Made by a program: the position numbers and the translations under genes. A DNA stretch of 64,000 nt from a virus (taxonomy: Duplodnaviria; Caudoviricetes), in IMG/VR virus record IMGVR_UViG_3300046779_000589, positions 243 to 64,242 of that record; one strand, written 5' to 3'. Below are positions 1,277 to 63,376 of this stretch, one piece after another. Numbering within the stretch: position 1 is the stretch's first letter; the number at the start of each line of letters is the position of its first letter. The notes beneath the pieces are model-generated. The model searched no databases. It was not told the DNA's origin and saw only the letters and a list, made by a program, of their open reading frames with translations.

Positions 1277-2302
1277 TTACCCCATCGCGTTGTAGAGGCC
1301 GAGGGCCGAGATACCCATGCCAAGATATTGCTGCAGCGGATTGTACGGCACAGAGGTCGTCTGGCTCGTGGCGTTGGCCACCGGACTGCCGTGCAACATA
1401 CTGGCGTAGCGTTCCAACTGCTCCATCGGGTAGCCCTGCTGGCGCAGGAAGTCTTGGTAGGCAGTGTCGAGTCCGGCCTGCTGCTGACCCTGCTGGGCGG
1501 CACCTTGGGCTTGGAGAAGCTGTGCAGCCTGCACGTCGCCAGCACGAGCGGCGCGTTCCAGTGAAGCCGTCTGGTTGGCCAAATCGGATTGGAACTGCAG
1601 GCGGTTCAGTCCGAGGTTGGCATAGTTCAGGTTCTCGCCAGCCTGACCTGCCTGCACCCGGCTGAGTTCGGCGGCGCGGGCTTGGTCGGTCGCCATACGA
1701 GCGGCGCGGTCCTGTTCGAACATGCGCTGCGCGTCTGTGTAAGACTGCTGCAGCCCTTCCGACTGGATTTGGTTCGTGCGGGTCAACAAGTCGCGTTCGG
1801 CCATACCCTGCTGGACACCCTGACGGGAGCCGCCAAAGGCACCAGCCTGCACAGCTTGCGCGTTACGGGCTTGGTTGGCGATCTGGAAGTCTTCGACGGC
1901 AGACATCTTCTGCGCGTCCACGACGTTCTGCATGTAGGGCGACATATACTGGCCGATAGCCTGCCCGGAGAAGGTGCCCGGATCAGAATAGCCATACTCG
2001 GAGAACTGATACGGCCCACCCGCACCGATTTGGCCCGCCTGATTGTAGGCGTCCTGAGTCATCCCCATCGCAGCCTGCGTGCCCGGCATCCCCCGGTTCG
2101 CCATGTCGCGGATGATGCCGTAGGACTGGTTCGTGTCCGCAGAGGTGTCAGCAAGCCGCTGCCCTTGGTAGGGGATGTAGTCTTGGTTGGAGATCGCCTC
2201 GCCGCGCTTCAAAACCCGTTCGAAGAACGGGTAGAACTGCTTCGGGATAGTCGTGTTCGTGACCGTCGAAGTGGTCGATCCGCTGCTTCCGCCGCCAGAC
2301 AT
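1277..2302 (-). CDS. Putative internal virion/DNA ejection protein (Gln/Ala/Gly-rich)
   Basis: Start reassigned to ATG 2302 (GGAGG RBS upstream; MSGGGSSGSTTSTV...). Q/A-rich helical composition and position are typical of podovirus pilot proteins. Confidence 0.65.
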   Translation of the reverse strand: MSGGGSSGSTTSTVTNTTIPKQFYPFFERVLKRGEAISNQDYIPYQGQRLADTSADTNQSYGIIRDMANRGMPGTQAAMGMTQDAYNQAGQIGAGGPYQFSEYGYSDPGTFSGQAIGQYMSPYMQNVVDAQKMSAVEDFQIANQARNAQAVQAGAFGGSRQGVQQGMAERDLLTRTNQIQSEGLQQSYTDAQRMFEQDRAARMATDQARAAELSRVQAGQAGENLNYANLGLNRLQFQSDLANQTASLERAARAGDVQAAQLLQAQGAAQQGQQQAGLDTAYQDFLRQQGYPMEQLERYASMLHGSPVANATSQTTSVPYNPLQQYLGMGISALGLYNAMG

Positions 2303-2303
2303 G

Positions 2304-2744
2304 TTAGACCTCCATCTTGTACTGGACGTATTCCGGCTCCCAGCCGACACGTTGCGCCCAGCGAATCCATGCGTTGCGACCAGTGGCTTCAAGCCGCGTG
2401 CAGTCGTTCAGTTTGGCGTGCGCCTTGATGTGATCGTGTGCCATGCCCAACCACTCAGCCATACGCGTACCACCCATCCACTCTATTACCATAGCATTCA
2501 TGTCAGGGTAACGGGCTACTCGCGTAGTGAAAGCTGCGATGACCGCGTTCAGGTTGGTATCGAACACAATCCAAAGCAGGTGCCCACCGGACGAAACAGA
2601 CTGGTAGAGGCTTGGGATAGACATCCGACCACCAGCGGTGCGTTCGGCACGGGTTACATGCGGGAGGGCTTTAGGCCACATCAGCGACACATGCTCCACG
2701 GGAACAGGCGCACAAACCAATACGGACTTAGCCTCGTCGCTCAT
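2304..2744 (-). CDS. Small protein in the ejection module, possibly GNAT-like/T7 gp13-like
   Basis: 146 aa with an ATGA overlap with the upstream gene. The LEATGRNAWIRWAQRVGW segment recalls the acetyltransferase-fold gene found at this position in podoviruses. Confidence 0.5.
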   Translation of the reverse strand: MSDEAKSVLVCAPVPVEHVSLMWPKALPHVTRAERTAGGRMSIPSLYQSVSSGGHLLWIVFDTNLNAVIAAFTTRVARYPDMNAMVIEWMGGTRMAEWLGMAHDHIKAHAKLNDCTRLEATGRNAWIRWAQRVGWEPEYVQYKMEV

Positions 2745-55913: not shown

Positions 55914-55951
55914 CCCCCAGTTAGTGCCGCAACTAACTGGGGGTCTTTTTT
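55914..55951. terminator. Terminator at the convergence of the two arms; the stem is a GTTAG box
   Basis: CCCCCAGTTAGT-GCCGCA-ACTAACTGGGGG followed by TCTTTTTT. Confidence 0.85.
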
Positions 55952-58900
55952 AGAACAGTTGCCAGCCTTGATCCCAGTCGCGGGCGTTTTGCAGCAGGGC
56001 TGCACGGTTCGCAGGGTTTATCGTAATCCCGTTGAACATCTCGTCCGTCGTCTTCTGGTGCTGCTTCAACGACCGCTGCAGGTCTTCCGGTTCAATCGGG
56101 TTGTCGGGATGGCGGCGGTTGAACTCCGCGATCTTCTGCATGGCGTTGGCGCGTTCTTCGGCATCGCCTTTACGCATGGACATATACACCGACTTCATCA
56201 GCTTGGTGCGTTCCTTGCCGATAGCGGTGTCGATGCGCTTGATGACTTGGTTGCGCTCTTGGTTGAAGGTGTAGGACGCAGGGGCAAAGCCCAGAAGCTG
56301 GCCGATGATGTTGCCCGTAGTCACGTCGTCCACCACAGGGTCGCCACGACGGGTGGTCATCCCCTCGTTGGCGTAGCGAACAGCCTTGGACACGCTGGAG
56401 AAGGCCGCAGGCAGCATCTGCTCGACGCCACGTTGGATGTCTCCCCCACTCAGCAGTTCCTTGACGCCCCGCGAGAACCGCACCCCCGTAGCCCATGCAG
56501 GGCCACCGAAGTAGTTCATGAACGTGTCGGCTTCCGACGGGTTGGAGTTGAAGCGGTCTGCCCGCAGCAACAGGCCCGACAGGCCGATACGGCCAGAGAT
56601 GTCCATCCCCGTGCCTTCGGTCAGCCAGCCCTTGTACCAGCCTTCACCGATGCTCTTGCGGACGATGGTTTCGAAGTCATCCTCGTCGTCGTCCAGCAGC
56701 ATCGCGTTCACCATCATGGCGACAGCGTTGAACATCGGCACACCAGCGACACCCGCCAGCAGGAAGGACGACCCCCACATACCCAGCGTGGCCTTGAGAG
56801 CGATGCGGGCATCCGCCTTCAACTGAGCGAGGTGCATCAGGTTCTCAGGAGTGCGCGGCAGTTGACCGGAGTCCAGCTTGCGCTGGAACGCACGGACCTC
56901 CATGCCTGCGGCTTCCTTCATGTACCGCAACTGCATGTGGGTCATGTGCAGCCCGTAGTTACGGAACATGCCGACGATCCGTCCGATACCCTGCTGGGTC
57001 CAGCGCGGTGCGTCGTTCAGCGTTGCGCCACCGTTCAGCTTGCGGGTCAGCCGCACCGCTTCTTCTGCCGCAGCTTGCCGCAGATCGGCTTCCGCCGCAT
57101 TCGGGTTTGCCGCACGGAGTTGCGCGTAATGCAGTCGGTAGCTGGCCAGAGCCGTTACCTGACGGTTCATGCGTTCTGCGACGTGGAAGGCACCGCCCAT
57201 CAGCGTCGAAACCCGCGAGAACACGGTGTTCTTACGCCCCGCCGTCTCGAAACCAAAGCTGTCGTAGAAGAGCGAACGCGAGAGTTCCCCCTGCGCCGCC
57301 ATCTCCTCAATAAGCGGGATCAGCGTCTCATACTGAGCGACCTGTTCCGGCGTGAAGCCCATATCGGTGCGGACAGTATACGCCCCATCCACCACGACAA
57401 ACGCATTGTCGATAGAGGGCGCAGAGCGCACCTTGACCGATTGCGTACCGCCCACACTCTGCGGCAGGTCTTGGAGCCGGGTGAACCCGCTGGTCGTGAA
57501 CGCCTTGGTCGCCGCAGCAATCTCCCGCATGGTCGGGGCCGTCTTGTACCGTGCAGCCAAGTTCGGAGCCACGACAACCCCGATGGTCCCCGTCTGCACG
57601 ATGACGGACGAGACGTTCCAACCCAGCGTCATGGCGAAGGTGGCCCGCGTGACCTTCTCGGCAAACTGGTCATTCGGCGGGTTCACGGCAAACTCAGCCC
57701 GTTGCACGAGTTCTTCCACAAGACCCTTGGTCGCCGGGTCGTGCGTGCGGTTCCACTCATCAACGAGTTTCGTCTTCTCCTCATTGATCTTGCGGCTGTA
57801 GCGCAGGCGCTCAGTCTGGCGAGCCGTCTGGAACGCCTTGATGCGGAACGCTTCGACCGGATCGGTTTCGAAACCGGGGAAACCCTCGCGGCGCTGCAGG
57901 GACTTGGCGAACGAACTTTCCGGCATCAGTTCGATGACCATAGCCATGAACCGCTCTTTGGTCGGGTCATCCACGTTGGCTTGGTCCAGCAGGGTAAGCA
58001 CCCCACGGACAAACGAGCCGTCCGGTGCGCGGCGGAACGTGTTCATGCTCAAGCGCGGGGTCGCGTCGTAGACAGGGTTGCCCGCTGCGTCCTTCTCGAC
58101 TTCCGGCATGGTGGCCAGCGCCGCAATCGCCCGCTTGCGTTCCGCATCGGTAGCGAACGTCTGGTAGACCGTTTCCGGCGGGGTGTCCGCAGAGGCACGG
58201 GCGACATAACTCAGCCAGTACGACCCTTCGCGCACCATCGGCTGGTAGCCGTCCATCAGTGTCGAACTCTGCATCAACCGGGCTTGGAACGACCGGAGCA
58301 ACGAGGTCTTCGTTGCTTCTGGGATGGAGATACCCTCGACGTTGGTCATCTCGTCGATGCTATCCGTGATCGCGGCCATTAGCACCCCGTGTTGGCGCGG
58401 ATAGTTGGCCCAGAGAGCGTCAGCCATAGACCGCAGGTTGGGCGGCAGGCTGCGATAGATCGCATTAAGTTCTTGGTGCGTGATGTTCTGGTCGCGGTCC
58501 TTATAAGTCCCCAGCGGGCGGTTCGCTTGCACGTGAGCAAGGTTGCCCTTGTTCATCATCAGTTTGAACCGTTCGTAGACCGCCGGATCGGCGGCGTCCC
58601 GCACCTCTTCAAACACCTTCTGCATACCCGACAGGCGCTGGGCTTCGGTGGTCTGTGCCGCCGTCATCTGGTTGATGAGCCGTTCCATACGCTTGGCAGC
58701 GGGCATTTGCGCCGCTTGCGCCATTTCAACCAGCATCGGTAGGTTGCGAGACCCCATCACGGCGTCACTCACACGGCCCAGCGGATCGTTCTGAACGGCA
58801 TCAAGAAGCTGGTCTGCAACGGCCCGCATAGACCCCTGCGTGGTGCGCTGGATACCTTGTTCGATGCGGTTGATGAGTCGGATCGTATCGCTCGCTCCTT

Positions 58901-59279
58901 CGGCGCTGGACGCCATATACAGAGAACCCGCATCCCGCGAGGCCGGAGCAGGTGCGATAGCCGCCGTCAACACGTTGTCCAGCGTGGAGAGCGCCGTGTC
59001 GCGCAGTTTGCGCGGCTTGCCCACCATCATCCGCAGGAAGTTACGCACCGCATCCGAGAAGCGGGTCCACGACGAGATTGGGTCGCCGTTCGGATGCAGT
59101 CGGGCCAGTTCGCCACGGAACTCCATGTTGGTCAGGGCTTCCGACGCAAATTCCTGCAGCGACTGGGAACCATAGTACGTGCTGAGAAGTTCTTTCACCG
59201 AGTCATAGACGGCTTGGACAGCTTGCGTCGTGGGGTGCGACGGGTCAGCCAGCGTGTGCGACAGCGCAGCGTGGCCCAT
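55950..59279 (-). CDS. Giant ejection/polyvalent protein, C-terminal part after the frameshift
   Basis: Starts at the EMGH half of a zincin motif; followed by QEFASEALTN and a long helical region ending with TM-like segments. Confidence 0.75.
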   Translation of the reverse strand: MGHAALSHTLADPSHPTTQAVQAVYDSVKELLSTYYGSQSLQEFASEALTNMEFRGELARLHPNGDPISSWTRFSDAVRNFLRMMVGKPRKLRDTALSTLDNVLTAAIAPAPASRDAGSLYMASSAEGASDTIRLINRIEQGIQRTTQGSMRAVADQLLDAVQNDPLGRVSDAVMGSRNLPMLVEMAQAAQMPAAKRMERLINQMTAAQTTEAQRLSGMQKVFEEVRDAADPAVYERFKLMMNKGNLAHVQANRPLGTYKDRDQNITHQELNAIYRSLPPNLRSMADALWANYPRQHGVLMAAITDSIDEMTNVEGISIPEATKTSLLRSFQARLMQSSTLMDGYQPMVREGSYWLSYVARASADTPPETVYQTFATDAERKRAIAALATMPEVEKDAAGNPVYDATPRLSMNTFRRAPDGSFVRGVLTLLDQANVDDPTKERFMAMVIELMPESSFAKSLQRREGFPGFETDPVEAFRIKAFQTARQTERLRYSRKINEEKTKLVDEWNRTHDPATKGLVEELVQRAEFAVNPPNDQFAEKVTRATFAMTLGWNVSSVIVQTGTIGVVVAPNLAARYKTAPTMREIAAATKAFTTSGFTRLQDLPQSVGGTQSVKVRSAPSIDNAFVVVDGAYTVRTDMGFTPEQVAQYETLIPLIEEMAAQGELSRSLFYDSFGFETAGRKNTVFSRVSTLMGGAFHVAERMNRQVTALASYRLHYAQLRAANPNAAEADLRQAAAEEAVRLTRKLNGGATLNDAPRWTQQGIGRIVGMFRNYGLHMTHMQLRYMKEAAGMEVRAFQRKLDSGQLPRTPENLMHLAQLKADARIALKATLGMWGSSFLLAGVAGVPMFNAVAMMVNAMLLDDDEDDFETIVRKSIGEGWYKGWLTEGTGMDISGRIGLSGLLLRADRFNSNPSEADTFMNYFGGPAWATGVRFSRGVKELLSGGDIQRGVEQMLPAAFSSVSKAVRYANEGMTTRRGDPVVDDVTTGNIIGQLLGFAPASYTFNQERNQVIKRIDTAIGKERTKLMKSVYMSMRKGDAEERANAMQKIAEFNRRHPDNPIEPEDLQRSLKQHQKTTDEMFNGITINPANRAALLQNARDWDQGWQLF

Positions 59280-62200
59280 CTGTTGAGACCAGTTTTCGAG
59301 TCCAGCAGAATTTCGTTGGTGGACGGATCGAACAGGCCCGGCACGGCGGTGCCATCTTCGGCACGCAGGTCGTCCACGATACGGACTTTGGTGGTTCCCA
59401 CCGCCTCGGACATCTTCATCATGATGCGCCCGATGAGCGGGTTCGGATGCGTCAGACCAATACCGATGAGCGCATCACGCAGGTTTCCGGCCCGCAGAGC
59501 GGCCACGACACTGGGCCGCAACGGTACGGCCATCGCGTCCACCGCGTGCGACAGGAGTTTCAACGTCGGCCCGTAGATGAGTTCGCGCACTGCACGCTCA
59601 CCCGCTTCGAAATCGTCGATGGCGTCAAGGATTTGCGTGTCGTTGCTGTCCTTGTTGATCCGGCCCGTTTCACGGAGGTGCCGCAGGATTGCGTCGGACC
59701 GCGTCTCTCCCTTGCGGTATTTGATGCCGCTGAGATTAGGGATCGGCTTGGCTTCGAACGGCAGCTTGGTGGGCGCGGCGACCTTCACCTCCCGCAGAGC
59801 GTCTTCGGCCTTACGCGCAAGCGTCTTACGCATCGCCTCGTTTTCTTTGGTCATCACCTCAAGCGCCGACGCCGCCATGCTCTCATGCAACGGGACTTCT
59901 GCGACAACTGCGTCATGCGCGGCGCTAACCACCGCATTGGCTTTCACGCCCGCCTCAACCTCAGTCTTGGTCGAATTGGCTGCTTGCCCCATAACGATCT
60001 GGGCCTTGGGCGAAAGATTTGCCACCACCCATGCACGGGCTTTGATCGCGTCTTTCGGTTTGATACCTGCGTAGAACTGCTCGGCCCCGATGATCTTGGC
60101 ACGCGCCTTGCCGTCCTTGATGTCGATCATGTCTTCGTGTGGCGTGGTGGAGTTCTTCGCAACACTCGTGGTTTCGACCGATTGGCCCGGCGCGGCAAAC
60201 ACCGACACGGCCCCGATTTCTTGCAGGGCTTCCATCACGTTGGGGAAGCGCGAGAAGAACTGGAACGCCGCCTCGGCTTCCTCGTTCTTGAGGGTATTGT
60301 TGCGCGAGTAGAGCAGGCGATACACCGCCCCCTTGTCCGTGTGCGTCGTCACGTCCTTGATCGCTGCAATCTCTCCGACGCCTTGGATATAGCTGCGGAA
60401 CTTGCGGAACGATTCGGGCGCACGTTGGTCAAAGAAGTCTTTGATCTTGGTGGCGAAGACCAGACCTTCTGCTTTCGCGTTAGGCGTCGGGTTATTTGCT
60501 TCACGCTCCTGCAGCGTCTCCAGCCAACCCACAGTCGGCTTGCCCGTCATGCGACGGTTGCGACGACGCAAGGTAAAGGTTTCCGGCCCCAACCGTGCGG
60601 GTCCAGACGGCTGCAACGTGCGGGCATCCGTAGGCGTGAGCAGTCCCGATGCCGTCATAGTGGGATCGGACGAACCGACTTGCCCCAGCGTGCGGGTCTT
60701 CGGGCGCGGAAGTTTGCGGCGTGCCGCACCTTCCACAGCGGTCTGTGCGGCGCTCTTCGCCATGCCGATCTTGCGCCGAGCATCGTTTCGGGCAATCCAG
60801 TCGCGCAGGACTTTACCGCTCTGATTACGCGGGTAGTTCACCAACTCAGGTTTGGGTTCCAGTTCCAGCAGGTTGTCAGGGAACCCAAGGGCTTCTTCGG
60901 GCGTTACTGTTTGACGTTGACCCGTGGCTACCTCGTTGAACAACTGCGTAGCCTCGGCTTCGGACATAGCCTTGGCTTGCGGTACGACCTCTTCTTTGAC
61001 CTTGGGCGCTGCGGGTCGCTGCGGGTTAGCCGCCTTGGGTGCCGGGACCGAAACGGGTTCTTCAATGACAGGCGCAGCTTCCGGCTCCTCGCGCACAGGT
61101 CCGCGCACCATCGCTGCGGCTTGCTCAAACGCTTCAAGTTCCGTTGGAAGATCAGCGTCTACGACTTCCGGCACTTCCTCGACAACGGGCTGCGGAGCGG
61201 CTTCCGGCGTCGGAGCCAACGGCAGTTCATTCTGCGCGACCTTCTCCACAGCGGGTTGGGCCACAGGCTTGGGCGCGACTTCCGGTGCGGCCTTTGCAGC
61301 GGCAGGAGTTGTCGGTGCTTTCTCCAGAACCCGACGTTTCCCATTCATGTCGGGGGCCGACACGACGCCTTGACTTTCCAGCGCGGTCAGGAGGTCTTCT
61401 GCCGTCTGGGCGCTGACCTCCATATAGTCTTGCAGGTGTTCGACCGAAGCACGCTGCGACCACTCCACTTGTTGTTTGGCTTGGGCCAGCAGAGACGACG
61501 AGATGCCGGGCGGCAGGCTGGCGGCTTCCGCAGCCGCGCTACCCGTATAGAAATTGCCGTACCGCGCCTTGAGTATGGCATCGGCTCGCTTGCGGGCTTC
61601 CTCGGCGGCGGCTGCACGGTCTTCGGCAAAGCCAAGCTGCCCCATATCGTCATTCAGAAACGGGACGCCAGCCTTACCATATTGGTGGAACTCCGGGTCT
61701 TTTTGACCGATGTCGAAGCGGCCCCAAACTTTACCCGCCAGCGGCACGTCGTCGTTGAGTGCATCGCCTTCGGCGTCGTTGAGGACGGAACCAAAGCGGG
61801 CGTCGAGGTCGGTAGCAAGTTCCGTTGCAGCGTCTTTGGCACCGACATAGATAGTCATGCCCTTACCAGACTGGTCGCTGTTACGCCCAACCTTGTGCGG
61901 TACACCCTTCTCGGTCAGGTAATCCGAGATGTCTTTTTCGCTGCCCGGTACGGGGTTCAGGTGCAGTTTCCAGCCGGAGGTGTCAGGTTGCGTCGAAGTA
62001 GCAGCGGTAGCTTTTGTTCCAGCCCGTGCAGCGGGACGCACCACGGGCGTGTCGCGTTCAATGAGGTCAAAGTCCTCATCGTCCAGCGCCGAAACCTCAT
62101 CCATAATTTCTTGGGGCGTCTTCACCTTTGCAGGTGTGGTCGGAGCCTGCGTAGCCGCCTTCGGGCGCAGGGTAGGTTCTTCGACGGGCGTCTCTTCGGG

Positions 62201-63376
62201 TGTTTCTTCCGTCCGCACGCGGGGGCGTGCGCCCGCCATCTCGTCGGCCATCTCAGCCTGCCACGCATCGCGGGCGGCTCGTTCTTCTTCGGTCAGATCG
62301 CCGGGAGCAGGGCGCGGGGCGGTAGGAGCAGTGGGGGCCGCAGCGGTAGGAGCAGTGGGGGGCGCAGCGGTAGGAGCAGTGGGGGCAGCGGCTGCGGGCG
62401 GCGGTGCGGTAGTGTCCTTGGGTTTGTTTTTGCTGGTGTCCGCTTCACCTTCGATGCCGATACCAAGCGCAGCCGTGCCACCACGGACAGGCGCACCGAT
62501 GACACCACCCGCAATACCCGCGTTGATGTACTCCTTGATCGCTTCGTCGTTGTCGAGCGGCAGACCAGCCTGCCAGCGTTCCAGCATCTGCTGGCCAACT
62601 TCCGTCAACCCTTCGGTGGTCGCACCTTCGGCGGCACCCGCAACCGTGCGAGTGAACACCTTCATGCCCGGCTTGACCAGACCCGACAGCAGCAGCTTGT
62701 CCGAGACAGACTCCAGCACCGACTGACCGACCGTGGCAGCAAGTGCCGACCCGACATCAACCTTTTCCCGACGCCCTGCCGCAACTTCGGCTTCTTGGCG
62801 CTGGATGTTCCCACCAAAGATCGTGGGAGCGGCGACCATAGCACCCGTGCCGATACCAATCGCGCCGCCCGTCAGCGGGTTGCCCGTGGCCGCAGTGCCG
62901 ACCAGCGTACCGCCAAGCGTAGCGCCGAGGGACGCGAGGCTTTCCGGTCCGGTCTGGCCCGCCTGCTCTCCGGCGAAAGTCAGAAACGAGCCGAGACTGT
63001 CAACGTCTTCCCACTGGGTTTGTTCGGGCTGACGCAGGGATTCCATGAAGGCTTCTTGGTCGCCCGCTGCCCGCATGGACTGGCCAAGACCGCGCAGAGA
63101 GTCGATACCCAGACCACTACCGAGATACTCGGTAGCCGTACCGAGACGCGAGGTGGCCGAAGCCTTTCCCATCTCCCAGCCGCGACCGAGTGCGGTACCA
63201 TCATCTACGGCGAGAGGACGCCCGAAACGTTGCTCGTATTCTTGGGCAAACGCCCCTTCGCGCTCATCAAGGAACTGCCGGATGCGGGCTTGCTCCGTCG
63301 CGGACGGGGTATCGCCTTTGATATTGATCGCATACTGACGACCGCTGAGACGGCCCGGAACAATGATCTTGCCCAT
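59195..63376 (-). CDS. Giant ejection/polyvalent protein, N-terminal part (in frame to ~59282)
   Basis: 1393-aa ORF ending GLFDPSTNEILLDSKTGLN followed by an Arg-rich out-of-frame tail. Confidence 0.8.
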   Translation of the reverse strand: MGKIIVPGRLSGRQYAINIKGDTPSATEQARIRQFLDEREGAFAQEYEQRFGRPLAVDDGTALGRGWEMGKASATSRLGTATEYLGSGLGIDSLRGLGQSMRAAGDQEAFMESLRQPEQTQWEDVDSLGSFLTFAGEQAGQTGPESLASLGATLGGTLVGTAATGNPLTGGAIGIGTGAMVAAPTIFGGNIQRQEAEVAAGRREKVDVGSALAATVGQSVLESVSDKLLLSGLVKPGMKVFTRTVAGAAEGATTEGLTEVGQQMLERWQAGLPLDNDEAIKEYINAGIAGGVIGAPVRGGTAALGIGIEGEADTSKNKPKDTTAPPPAAAAPTAPTAAPPTAPTAAAPTAPTAPRPAPGDLTEEERAARDAWQAEMADEMAGARPRVRTEETPEETPVEEPTLRPKAATQAPTTPAKVKTPQEIMDEVSALDDEDFDLIERDTPVVRPAARAGTKATAATSTQPDTSGWKLHLNPVPGSEKDISDYLTEKGVPHKVGRNSDQSGKGMTIYVGAKDAATELATDLDARFGSVLNDAEGDALNDDVPLAGKVWGRFDIGQKDPEFHQYGKAGVPFLNDDMGQLGFAEDRAAAAEEARKRADAILKARYGNFYTGSAAAEAASLPPGISSSLLAQAKQQVEWSQRASVEHLQDYMEVSAQTAEDLLTALESQGVVSAPDMNGKRRVLEKAPTTPAAAKAAPEVAPKPVAQPAVEKVAQNELPLAPTPEAAPQPVVEEVPEVVDADLPTELEAFEQAAAMVRGPVREEPEAAPVIEEPVSVPAPKAANPQRPAAPKVKEEVVPQAKAMSEAEATQLFNEVATGQRQTVTPEEALGFPDNLLELEPKPELVNYPRNQSGKVLRDWIARNDARRKIGMAKSAAQTAVEGAARRKLPRPKTRTLGQVGSSDPTMTASGLLTPTDARTLQPSGPARLGPETFTLRRRNRRMTGKPTVGWLETLQEREANNPTPNAKAEGLVFATKIKDFFDQRAPESFRKFRSYIQGVGEIAAIKDVTTHTDKGAVYRLLYSRNNTLKNEEAEAAFQFFSRFPNVMEALQEIGAVSVFAAPGQSVETTSVAKNSTTPHEDMIDIKDGKARAKIIGAEQFYAGIKPKDAIKARAWVVANLSPKAQIVMGQAANSTKTEVEAGVKANAVVSAAHDAVVAEVPLHESMAASALEVMTKENEAMRKTLARKAEDALREVKVAAPTKLPFEAKPIPNLSGIKYRKGETRSDAILRHLRETGRINKDSNDTQILDAIDDFEAGERAVRELIYGPTLKLLSHAVDAMAVPLRPSVVAALRAGNLRDALIGIGLTHPNPLIGRIMMKMSEAVGTTKVRIVDDLRAEDGTAVPGLFDPSTNEILLDSKTGLNRWATLRCRTRWLTRRTPRRKLSKPSMTR
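62321..62389. repeat. ~2.9 copies of a 24-bp tandem repeat encoding a Pro/Ala/Thr linker
   Basis: ggtaggagcagtgggggccgcagc-type units at 62321, 62345 and 62369. Confidence 0.9.

Follow-up and report, generated by a model that had tools for sequence, protein, structure and literature searches.

RESULTS

A lyase-like domain within a giant phage protein

The window analyzed here, a 64,000-nucleotide stretch of DNA, is nearly all of a 64,242-bp uncultured virus record (IMG/VR record IMGVR_UViG_3300046779_000589, positions 243 to 64,242; Duplodnaviria, Caudoviricetes) to which CheckV assigns a completeness of 100%. Its minus strand carries the gene for a giant protein, present as two open reading frames (ORFs), P0001 and P0003. 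Within P0001 lies a compact domain that is very probably homologous to the phospho-Ser/Thr lyase superfamily, and this domain is the subject of the present analysis. The features that frame it, in window coordinates, are as follows.

59195..63376, minus strand: giant protein gene, first reading frame (P0001, 1393 amino acids), from ORF translation
55950..59279, minus strand: giant protein gene, second reading frame (P0003, 1109 amino acids), with a C-terminal PLxRFG domain, from NCBIfam and PHROG matches
61532..61981, minus strand: phospho-Ser/Thr-lyase-like domain, P0001 residues 466 to 615 (150 amino acids), from profiles, AlphaFold2, Foldseek, and conservation
61997..62476, minus strand: upstream low-complexity linker rich in Pro, Ala, Thr, and Glu, residues 301 to 460, from a composition scan and translation

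A preliminary description of this DNA had placed a phosphothreonine lyase-like segment at 61540-61985 and quoted a series of motifs from it. These motifs are indeed present, on the minus strand: GWKLHLNP starts at P0001 residue 468 and KVWGRFD occupies residues 549 to 555, together covering window positions 61712-61975 (minus strand); the plus-strand translation of 61540-61985 is full of stops. The interval corresponds to residues 465 to 613, in agreement with the conserved module (466 to 615) of ~150 residues that we delimited from eight proteins with this region and later from 30 loci. Along the module, the conserved motifs follow the order G-W-K-x-H, H/Y/F-K, G-K-x-x-T-x-Y-x-G, D-D, G-R-F, Y-G, G-x-P, and Y-G-x-F-Y-x-G. 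Low-complexity linkers flank the domain on both sides, as had been proposed: the combined fraction of Pro, Ala, Thr, and Glu is 0.62 to 0.90 in residues 301 to 400 and 0.57 to 0.60 in residues 681 to 800, compared to 0.15 to 0.30 inside the domain. The module is also the best-conserved part of the giant protein, with 58 to 66% identity among the nearest relatives versus 26 to 36%, or no detectable similarity, elsewhere. Together with the hundreds of clusters that its profile matches and the invariance of its motif residues (see below), this puts the match far outside the range of chance.

Sequence searches converge on the lyase superfamily

The top Pfam match for a 162-residue segment was RamC_N (PF25816), the lyase domain of class III synthetases, with an E value of 1.1e-3. 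Its score of 18.9 bits, like that of a 159-residue segment (17.9 bits), lay below the family's gathering cutoff of 27 bits. Weak RamC_N matches were also obtained for 15 of 24 family members, and the best-scoring relative, P0032, reached 26.1 bits against this cutoff of 27. When a 45-column profile of the N-terminal part was searched against 177,635 PDB sequences, the top 8 matches were class III LanKC chains (E values of 0.006 to 0.5). The alignment to these chains was ungapped and paired the GWKxH motif and then, 25 residues later, the Lys of the (F/H)K motif. Comparison of an alignment of 152 relatives with 80-odd OspF/SpvC family proteins by hhalign gave a P value of 1.7e-4 and a probability of 50%, and the nearest named clusters by language-model features were VRP3/OspF and RamC_N. 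No score is strong alone, yet all of the methods converge on the same superfamily.

Other searches returned little. The domain had no match in PHROGs, NCBIfam, or PADLOC, and VRP3 (PF03536) gave no Pfam match to it at an E value of ≤1. A phmmer search of the segment against PDB sequences retrieved green fluorescent protein alone, at an E value of 1, and the same database gave nothing useful for the relative P0032. Two further candidates were rejected. The designed "Cake/Bagel" propellers that topped the full-domain PDB profile search reflect spurious summing of a repeated TIYVGS-like motif, and colicin D, the sole match of a profile of the C-terminal half (E value of 0.2), was taken as a chance match.

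Predicted structures match lyase folds

The domain was modeled with AlphaFold2 from a 24-sequence alignment (predicted local distance difference test score [pLDDT] of 92.2; predicted template modeling score of 0.85). The top 14 Foldseek matches to this first model were all LanKC (PneKC, ThurKC, SalKC, and CuvL), SpvC, VirA, or OspF chains, with E values of 0.008 to 0.06 and probabilities of up to 1.00. An all-against-all structural search that did not use Foldseek was headed by ThurKC (Z score of 8.2), HopA1 (8.0), and CuvL (7.9). VIA-align comparison of the Foldseek matches gave a Z score of 8.6 for ThurKC, with 116 residues aligned at 3.5 Å (model residues 1 to 147 against chain residues 57 to 206), and likewise 8.6 for HopA1, with 133 aligned residues. 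Generic ferredoxin-like folds aligned over 60 to 85 residues, versus 116 to 133 for the lyases.

A second model, made for a gut-alphaproteobacterial member that is 30% identical to the phage domain (pLDDT of 79.6), matched ThurKC with a Foldseek E value of 8.7e-4 and a probability of 1.00 and SpvC with a probability of 0.99; its 20 best matches were again all LanKC, SpvC, VirA, or OspF chains. No match to the domain was found among the BFVD viral structures at an E value of ≤0.001. The preliminary description had suggested comparing an AlphaFold model with SpvC/OspF and LanKC by Foldseek, and the top matches were exclusively LanKC, SpvC, VirA, and OspF. Its central proposal, an OspF/SpvC/LanKC-like domain with the K-x-H, Lys, Tyr, and Arg motifs in order, is likewise upheld by the profiles, by the two AlphaFold models and their fold searches, and by the language-model neighbors.

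The predicted active site is conserved

In SpvC, K136 is the catalytic base and H106 the acid, Y158 keeps K136 deprotonated, and D201 assists catalysis (PMC4159009, PMC10604976). Phosphate is bound by K104, R148, R213, and R220, with K104 assigned to both the phosphate and the carbanion, and the equivalents in ThurKC are K94, H67, D152, K65, K117, R163, and R191 (PMC4159009, PMC10604976). The corresponding positions in the phage domain are listed below.

61961..61969, minus strand: K470-L-H472 (K-x-H), equivalent to SpvC K104/H106 and ThurKC K65/H67 by hhalign and the LanKC alignment
61892..61894, minus strand: K495, the predicted general base, equivalent to SpvC K136 and ThurKC K94 by hhalign and the LanKC alignment
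61847..61864, minus strand: K505 to Y510 (G-K-G-M-T-I-Y), with Y510 equivalent to SpvC Y158
61718..61750, minus strand: D543 to R553 (DD...GRFD), candidate equivalents of SpvC D201/R213 and ThurKC D152/R163

The hhalign alignment pairs K470, H472, K495, G504, T508, and Y510 with SpvC K104, H106, K136, G152, T156, and Y158, respectively. Conservation was counted in 152 relatives (representatives at ≤50% identity). K470, H472, K495, and T508 were present in all 152, R553 in 151, K505 in 150, and Y510 in 149, and the D543 position was Asp or Glu in 146. By its spacing, K505 probably binds the phosphate as SpvC R148 and ThurKC K117 do. D543 and R553 are candidate equivalents of D201/D152 and R213/R163 on the basis of spacing and of the whole-domain structural alignments; the distance from Asp to Arg is 10 to 11 residues, as in ThurKC. 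No equivalent of SpvC R220 was found in the domain. In the first model, the catalytic residues are on neighboring strands with i/i+2 spacing. That the predicted active site is intact and apparently under strong purifying selection speaks for a functional enzyme.

The domain resembles two lyase families but belongs to neither

The best match in both sequence and structure is the lyase domain of LanKC and LanL (ThurKC, 8SAM; PneKC, 8W7J; CuvL, 8CAR; SalKC, 9UGQ; PF25816). The phage domain shares with it the GWK-x-H strand, the base Lys 25 residues on, and the GK..T.Y strand, as well as a fold match of ~116 to 121 residues at Z scores of 7.9 to 8.6. ThurKC residues K65, H67, and K94 have counterparts in it, and K117, D152, and R163 probably do. 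However, the phage domain is shorter (~150 versus ~185 amino acids), lacks the leader-peptide groove, and has a C-terminal half that is unrecognizable by sequence. In addition, Pfam searches of P0001 and P0003 found no fused kinase or LanC-like cyclase, and the domain lies in a giant protein of a phage structural operon rather than in a biosynthetic cluster.

With the OspF/SpvC/VirA/HopAI1 effectors (PF03536; 2Z8P, 3I0U, and 3BO6), the domain shares four aligned catalytic residues, Foldseek probabilities of 0.91 to 0.99, and, for the phage protein by inference, delivery between organisms. Unlike SpvC, it lacks residues 1 to 95, which include the mitogen-activated protein (MAP) kinase-docking region; the alignment starts at SpvC residues 96 to 99, and linker lies upstream. 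R148 of SpvC is replaced, probably by K505, no counterpart of R220 was found, and the presumed target cell is bacterial rather than eukaryotic. The longest structural alignments, at 128 to 133 residues (Z scores of 7.9 to 8.6), are to the HopA1 effector and the LanY class V lyase (PF17914; 4RSW and 4RSX), but identity to these is 9 to 11% and there is no hidden Markov model (HMM) match. In its predicted working, the domain thus resembles the LanKC lyase and OspF/SpvC, yet it is a member of neither family, given the missed Pfam cutoffs, the lack of a kinase or cyclase partner, the absence of the SpvC N-terminal 95 residues, and the unrecognizable C-terminal half.

The carrier protein is a PLxRFG giant at the end of the late operon

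The second reading frame, P0003, ends in a PLxRFG domain (NCBIfam NF032893, 302 bits against a cutoff of 100) and also matches the C terminus of phrog_10089, "DarB-like" (E value of 7.5e-53). Its ORF overlaps the end of the P0001 ORF on the same strand. The relatives P0004 to P0006 are each one uninterrupted protein of 2238 to 2342 amino acids, and the tblastn alignments of the relatives change frame between 59300 and 59273 (minus strand), which indicates that the two ORFs are a single giant gene of ~2400 codons that is split here by a frameshift. The frameshift region (59273-59300, minus strand) has ~8 codons fewer than P0005. The HExxH zincin motif of relatives (P0005 residues 1147 to 1151) falls at this spot, where one frame encodes QQxxH and the other NRWAT. 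Since HExxH is kept in neither frame, the metallopeptidase-like site is lost whether the frameshift is an assembly error or genuine. P0003 also has two hydrophobic stretches in or near the PLxRFG region, residues 556 to 576 (window positions ~57552-57614) and 832 to 862 (56694-56786; both minus strand), which could be candidate membrane-inserting segments of an ejection protein.

Two further features bear on the surroundings of the domain.

61325..61495, minus strand: FtsK-gamma-like winged helix, P0001 residues 628 to 684, directly after the lyase-like domain, from Pfam and PHROGs
1280-2392, minus strand: match to phrog_4287, "DNA ejection protein" (E value of 7.9e-19), two genes upstream of the giant gene across the record ends

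The Pfam FtsK_gamma match to the winged helix has an E value of 2e-6 and 27.9 bits, under the cutoff of 30.6; phrog_13700 and phrog_1358 (FtsK/SpoIIIE-like) also match this region. The late arm, on the minus strand, runs through terminase, portal, major head protein, tail fibers, a virion structural protein, and the phrog_4287 protein and continues across the record ends with a 185-amino-acid ORF and then the giant gene. With the phrog_4287 ORF two genes upstream, the giant gene falls last in the late operon; a primase/helicase gene follows on the opposite strand.

Proteins that share the module also carry LPD39 or LPD1 "large polyvalent protein-associated" domains. The giant protein resembles polyvalent proteins (PMC5512222) and PLxRFG giants in having multiple effector modules separated by linkers, a PLxRFG C terminus, and LPD39/LPD1 domains in its relatives. 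Genome size and position of the gene are comparable to those in ~62-kb podoviruses with PLxRFG giants, Klebsiella Lastavirus among them; in Klebsiella podoviruses of 62 kb, such giants have been noted with no function assigned (PMC9505181). The 2017 catalogue of polyvalent proteins by Iyer et al. lists peptidases, ADP-ribosyltransferases, kinases, acetyltransferases, and nucleotidyltransferases as protein-modifying modules (PMC5512222). Unlike these entries, a lyase or OspF is not mentioned there, and our literature searches found no description of a phosphothreonine lyase in a phage or polyvalent protein. From synteny and the polyvalent-protein model (PMC5512222), the giant protein is probably a virion component that is delivered into the cell together with the DNA. 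The preliminary description had called it a giant ejection protein, an assignment that stays putative and draws on synteny and family membership.

The family extends across viruses, plasmids, and cellular genomes

A profile of the domain searched against 1.84 billion representatives matched 616 clusters (50% identity) at an E value of ≤1e-3 and 464 at ≤1e-10. Among the best 150 clusters, 63 have ≤350 amino acids and 62 have ≥1000, the longest having 6105. On IMG/VR viral contigs, members occur as giant ORFs; they were found once an alignment was used, a scan with a single sequence having returned no matches. Others are in metagenome-assembled genomes labeled Saccharibacteria, Peribacteraceae, Woesearchaeota, Methanosarcinales, and Planctomycetales, and many are in gut Alphaproteobacteria. 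All members with retrievable names are "hypothetical" or unnamed, and none carries a lyase family in the precomputed Pfam annotation. In the Atlas, one mostly viral cluster is labeled RamC_N by Pfam 38.1, so automatic annotation already reaches related viral proteins. A tblastn search with three divergent members found no match in 50,697 GenBank phage records. No kinase or FHA domain was detected in 20 family proteins scanned.

One copy is on a plasmid, Skermanella rosea pSR-1 (NZ_CP086112.1; L001:7296-8516), where the domain ends a 406-amino-acid "hypothetical protein" whose N terminus weakly matches MobA/VirD2-like relaxases (E value of 1.4e-4). The gene is immediately upstream of genes for a type IV secretion system coupling protein and a Trb operon. 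Relaxases are proteins that travel with the DNA. In this copy, the Lys of the K-x-H motif is replaced by Gln (GWQLH).

DISCUSSION

Homology of the domain to the phospho-Ser/Thr lyase superfamily is, in our judgment, very likely. The analysis establishes the boundaries of the domain, its fold, its kinship, and the conservation of its residues, whereas enzymatic activity, a protein substrate, packaging and injection, and a counterdefense role are inferences. On balance, we also favor the further reading that it is an active peptidyl phospho-Ser/Thr lyase delivered with the phage DNA. Residues 466 to 615 would then be a stripped-down, catalytically intact member of the phosphothreonine lyase (beta-eliminase) superfamily. 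By analogy with SpvC and ThurKC, K495 would take the C-alpha proton from phospho-Ser or phospho-Thr, and H472 would protonate the leaving phosphate. K470, K505, and R553 would hold the phosphate, Y510 would keep K495 deprotonated, and D543 would support acid/base catalysis. The predicted product is dehydroalanine or dehydrobutyrine, and a site so converted would never be phosphorylated again.

Because the giant gene is last in the late (virion) operon, its product is probably packaged and would enter with the DNA. The lyase, held between the flexible linkers of a polyvalent PLxRFG protein of ~2400 amino acids, would find its substrates among the phosphorylated proteins of the host soon after infection begins. 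The most plausible target would be kinase-dependent signaling or defense. With no kinase encoded by the phage, the lyase would rely on phosphorylation by the host, which fits the hypothesis that it erases marks of host kinases.

Several observations weigh against an active, injected protein lyase. Each single score is modest, and no curated family cutoff was reached; the profile search found no sequence similarity between the C-terminal half and known lyases. The best Foldseek E value of the first model was 7.6e-3, and Z scores of 8.2 to 8.6 are near the best values of 7 to 8 that models lacking a clear relative usually reach. Which residues stand in for SpvC R148 and R220 is uncertain. In this record, the giant gene appears from its reading frames to be split by a frameshift, and a scan of the phage's proteins found no Pkinase or APH domain. 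Finally, gut alphaproteobacterial copies (P0011 and P0013; L011:3369-5771) are chromosomal and lie among housekeeping genes such as gyrB and polA, and in some gut alphaproteobacterial members the lyase-like domain shares its chain with a fused Ppx/GppA phosphohydrolase domain. These neighbors and fusions indicate that the family is not confined to conflict and that some members may not act on proteins.

That last point bears on a different substrate. The same fold and beta-elimination chemistry could act on a small molecule, nucleotide, or signal that carries phosphate, or on a lesion in DNA handled during genome entry, as in apurinic/apyrimidinic (AP) or deoxyribose phosphate (dRP) lyases. 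The FtsK-gamma-like DNA-binding winged helix directly after the domain, the fusion of the plasmid copy to a relaxase-like region, the fusion of cellular relatives to Ppx/GppA phosphohydrolase domains, and the weak NADAR-like domain that precedes the copy in P0090 are all compatible with such a substrate. We nevertheless consider it unlikely, since the conserved, complete catalytic set is the one specific to peptidyl phospho-Thr/phospho-Ser lyases and the characterized superfamily members all act on peptides or proteins. To our knowledge, the known AP and dRP lyases have other folds, which counts against a DNA lesion.

Another alternative is a two-step dehydration of the kind known from LanKC, LanL, and LanK/LanY, in which the domain would be the lyase partner of a kinase supplied in trans by the host or by an unrecognized phage protein. 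The two would introduce dehydroamino acids into a particular peptide or protein, perhaps the Thr-rich linkers of the phage itself, instead of erasing signaling marks of the host. The closest relatives in sequence and structure are indeed lanthipeptide synthetase lyase domains and HopA1/LanY, and the flanking linkers are rich in Thr. But neither the phage nor the 20 family proteins scanned have a Pkinase or APH domain, and a cyclase or precursor-peptide context is absent, which leaves this arrangement distinctly improbable.

Loss of catalysis altogether is more doubtful again. The domain could be a noncatalytic reader of a phosphorylated or anionic ligand, like eIF4E and, as proposed, BLES03; the fold is common to nonlyase binders (PMC4159009), and an eIF4E chain was matched at a Z score of 5.7. 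However, all 152 relatives keep the Lys that serves as general base and the His that serves as general acid, and eIF4E lacks exactly these residues (PMC4159009). We consider it very improbable that the likeness arose by chance from a common alpha/beta (ferredoxin-like) core and short motifs, without kinship to lyases: many ferredoxin-like folds reach Z scores of 6 to 7.7, little below the lyases, and every HMM match is under its curated threshold, but sequence, structure, and language-model methods share the same best superfamily, the lyase alignments cover 116 to 133 residues versus 60 to 85 for generic folds, and invariance falls on the four aligned catalytic positions.

Phosphothreonine lyases are known from two settings, bacterial effectors that silence eukaryotic MAP kinases and the dehydration step of lanthipeptide biosynthesis. 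A minimal, kinase-free lyase in phage polyvalent proteins that are probably injected, and in a relaxase-like protein of a plasmid, would, if true, carry this irreversible chemistry into the conflicts that bacteria, phages, and plasmids wage with one another. We raise as a tentative and rather speculative proposal that phages, and conjugative elements by way of their relaxases, inject a dedicated, irreversible "phospho-eraser" that turns phospho-Ser/Thr of host proteins into dehydroamino acids in the first moments after entry and would permanently disable kinase-based immunity or signaling (for example, Stk2-like and PglW-like kinases or HipA-like toxins), and that the hundreds of unannotated clusters represent a widespread counterdefense module across bacteria, candidate-phyla bacteria, and archaea. 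The result gives a testable function to a family of at least 464 protein clusters that lack annotation, as well as to one module of the enigmatic PLxRFG giants, and the domain would offer a direct way of asking how far bacterial Ser/Thr phosphorylation counts in antiviral defense.

Some family members have additional features. P0022, P0032, and P0049 contain two or three matched stretches of the lyase-like domain. The giant P0090 (4751 amino acids) has a weak NADAR-like match at residues 1296 to 1395 (24.4 bits, below the cutoff), the lyase-like domain at residues 1436 to 1590, and, later, DUF1848. NADAR is an ADP-ribose eraser, and P0090 may combine two "eraser" modules. Two giants with the lyase-like domain also match a CrtO-like acyltransferase (PF18927; E values of 5e-11 to 5e-13), at residues 965 to 1044 of P0035 and at residues 258 to 337 of the protein encoded at L008:3-5600.

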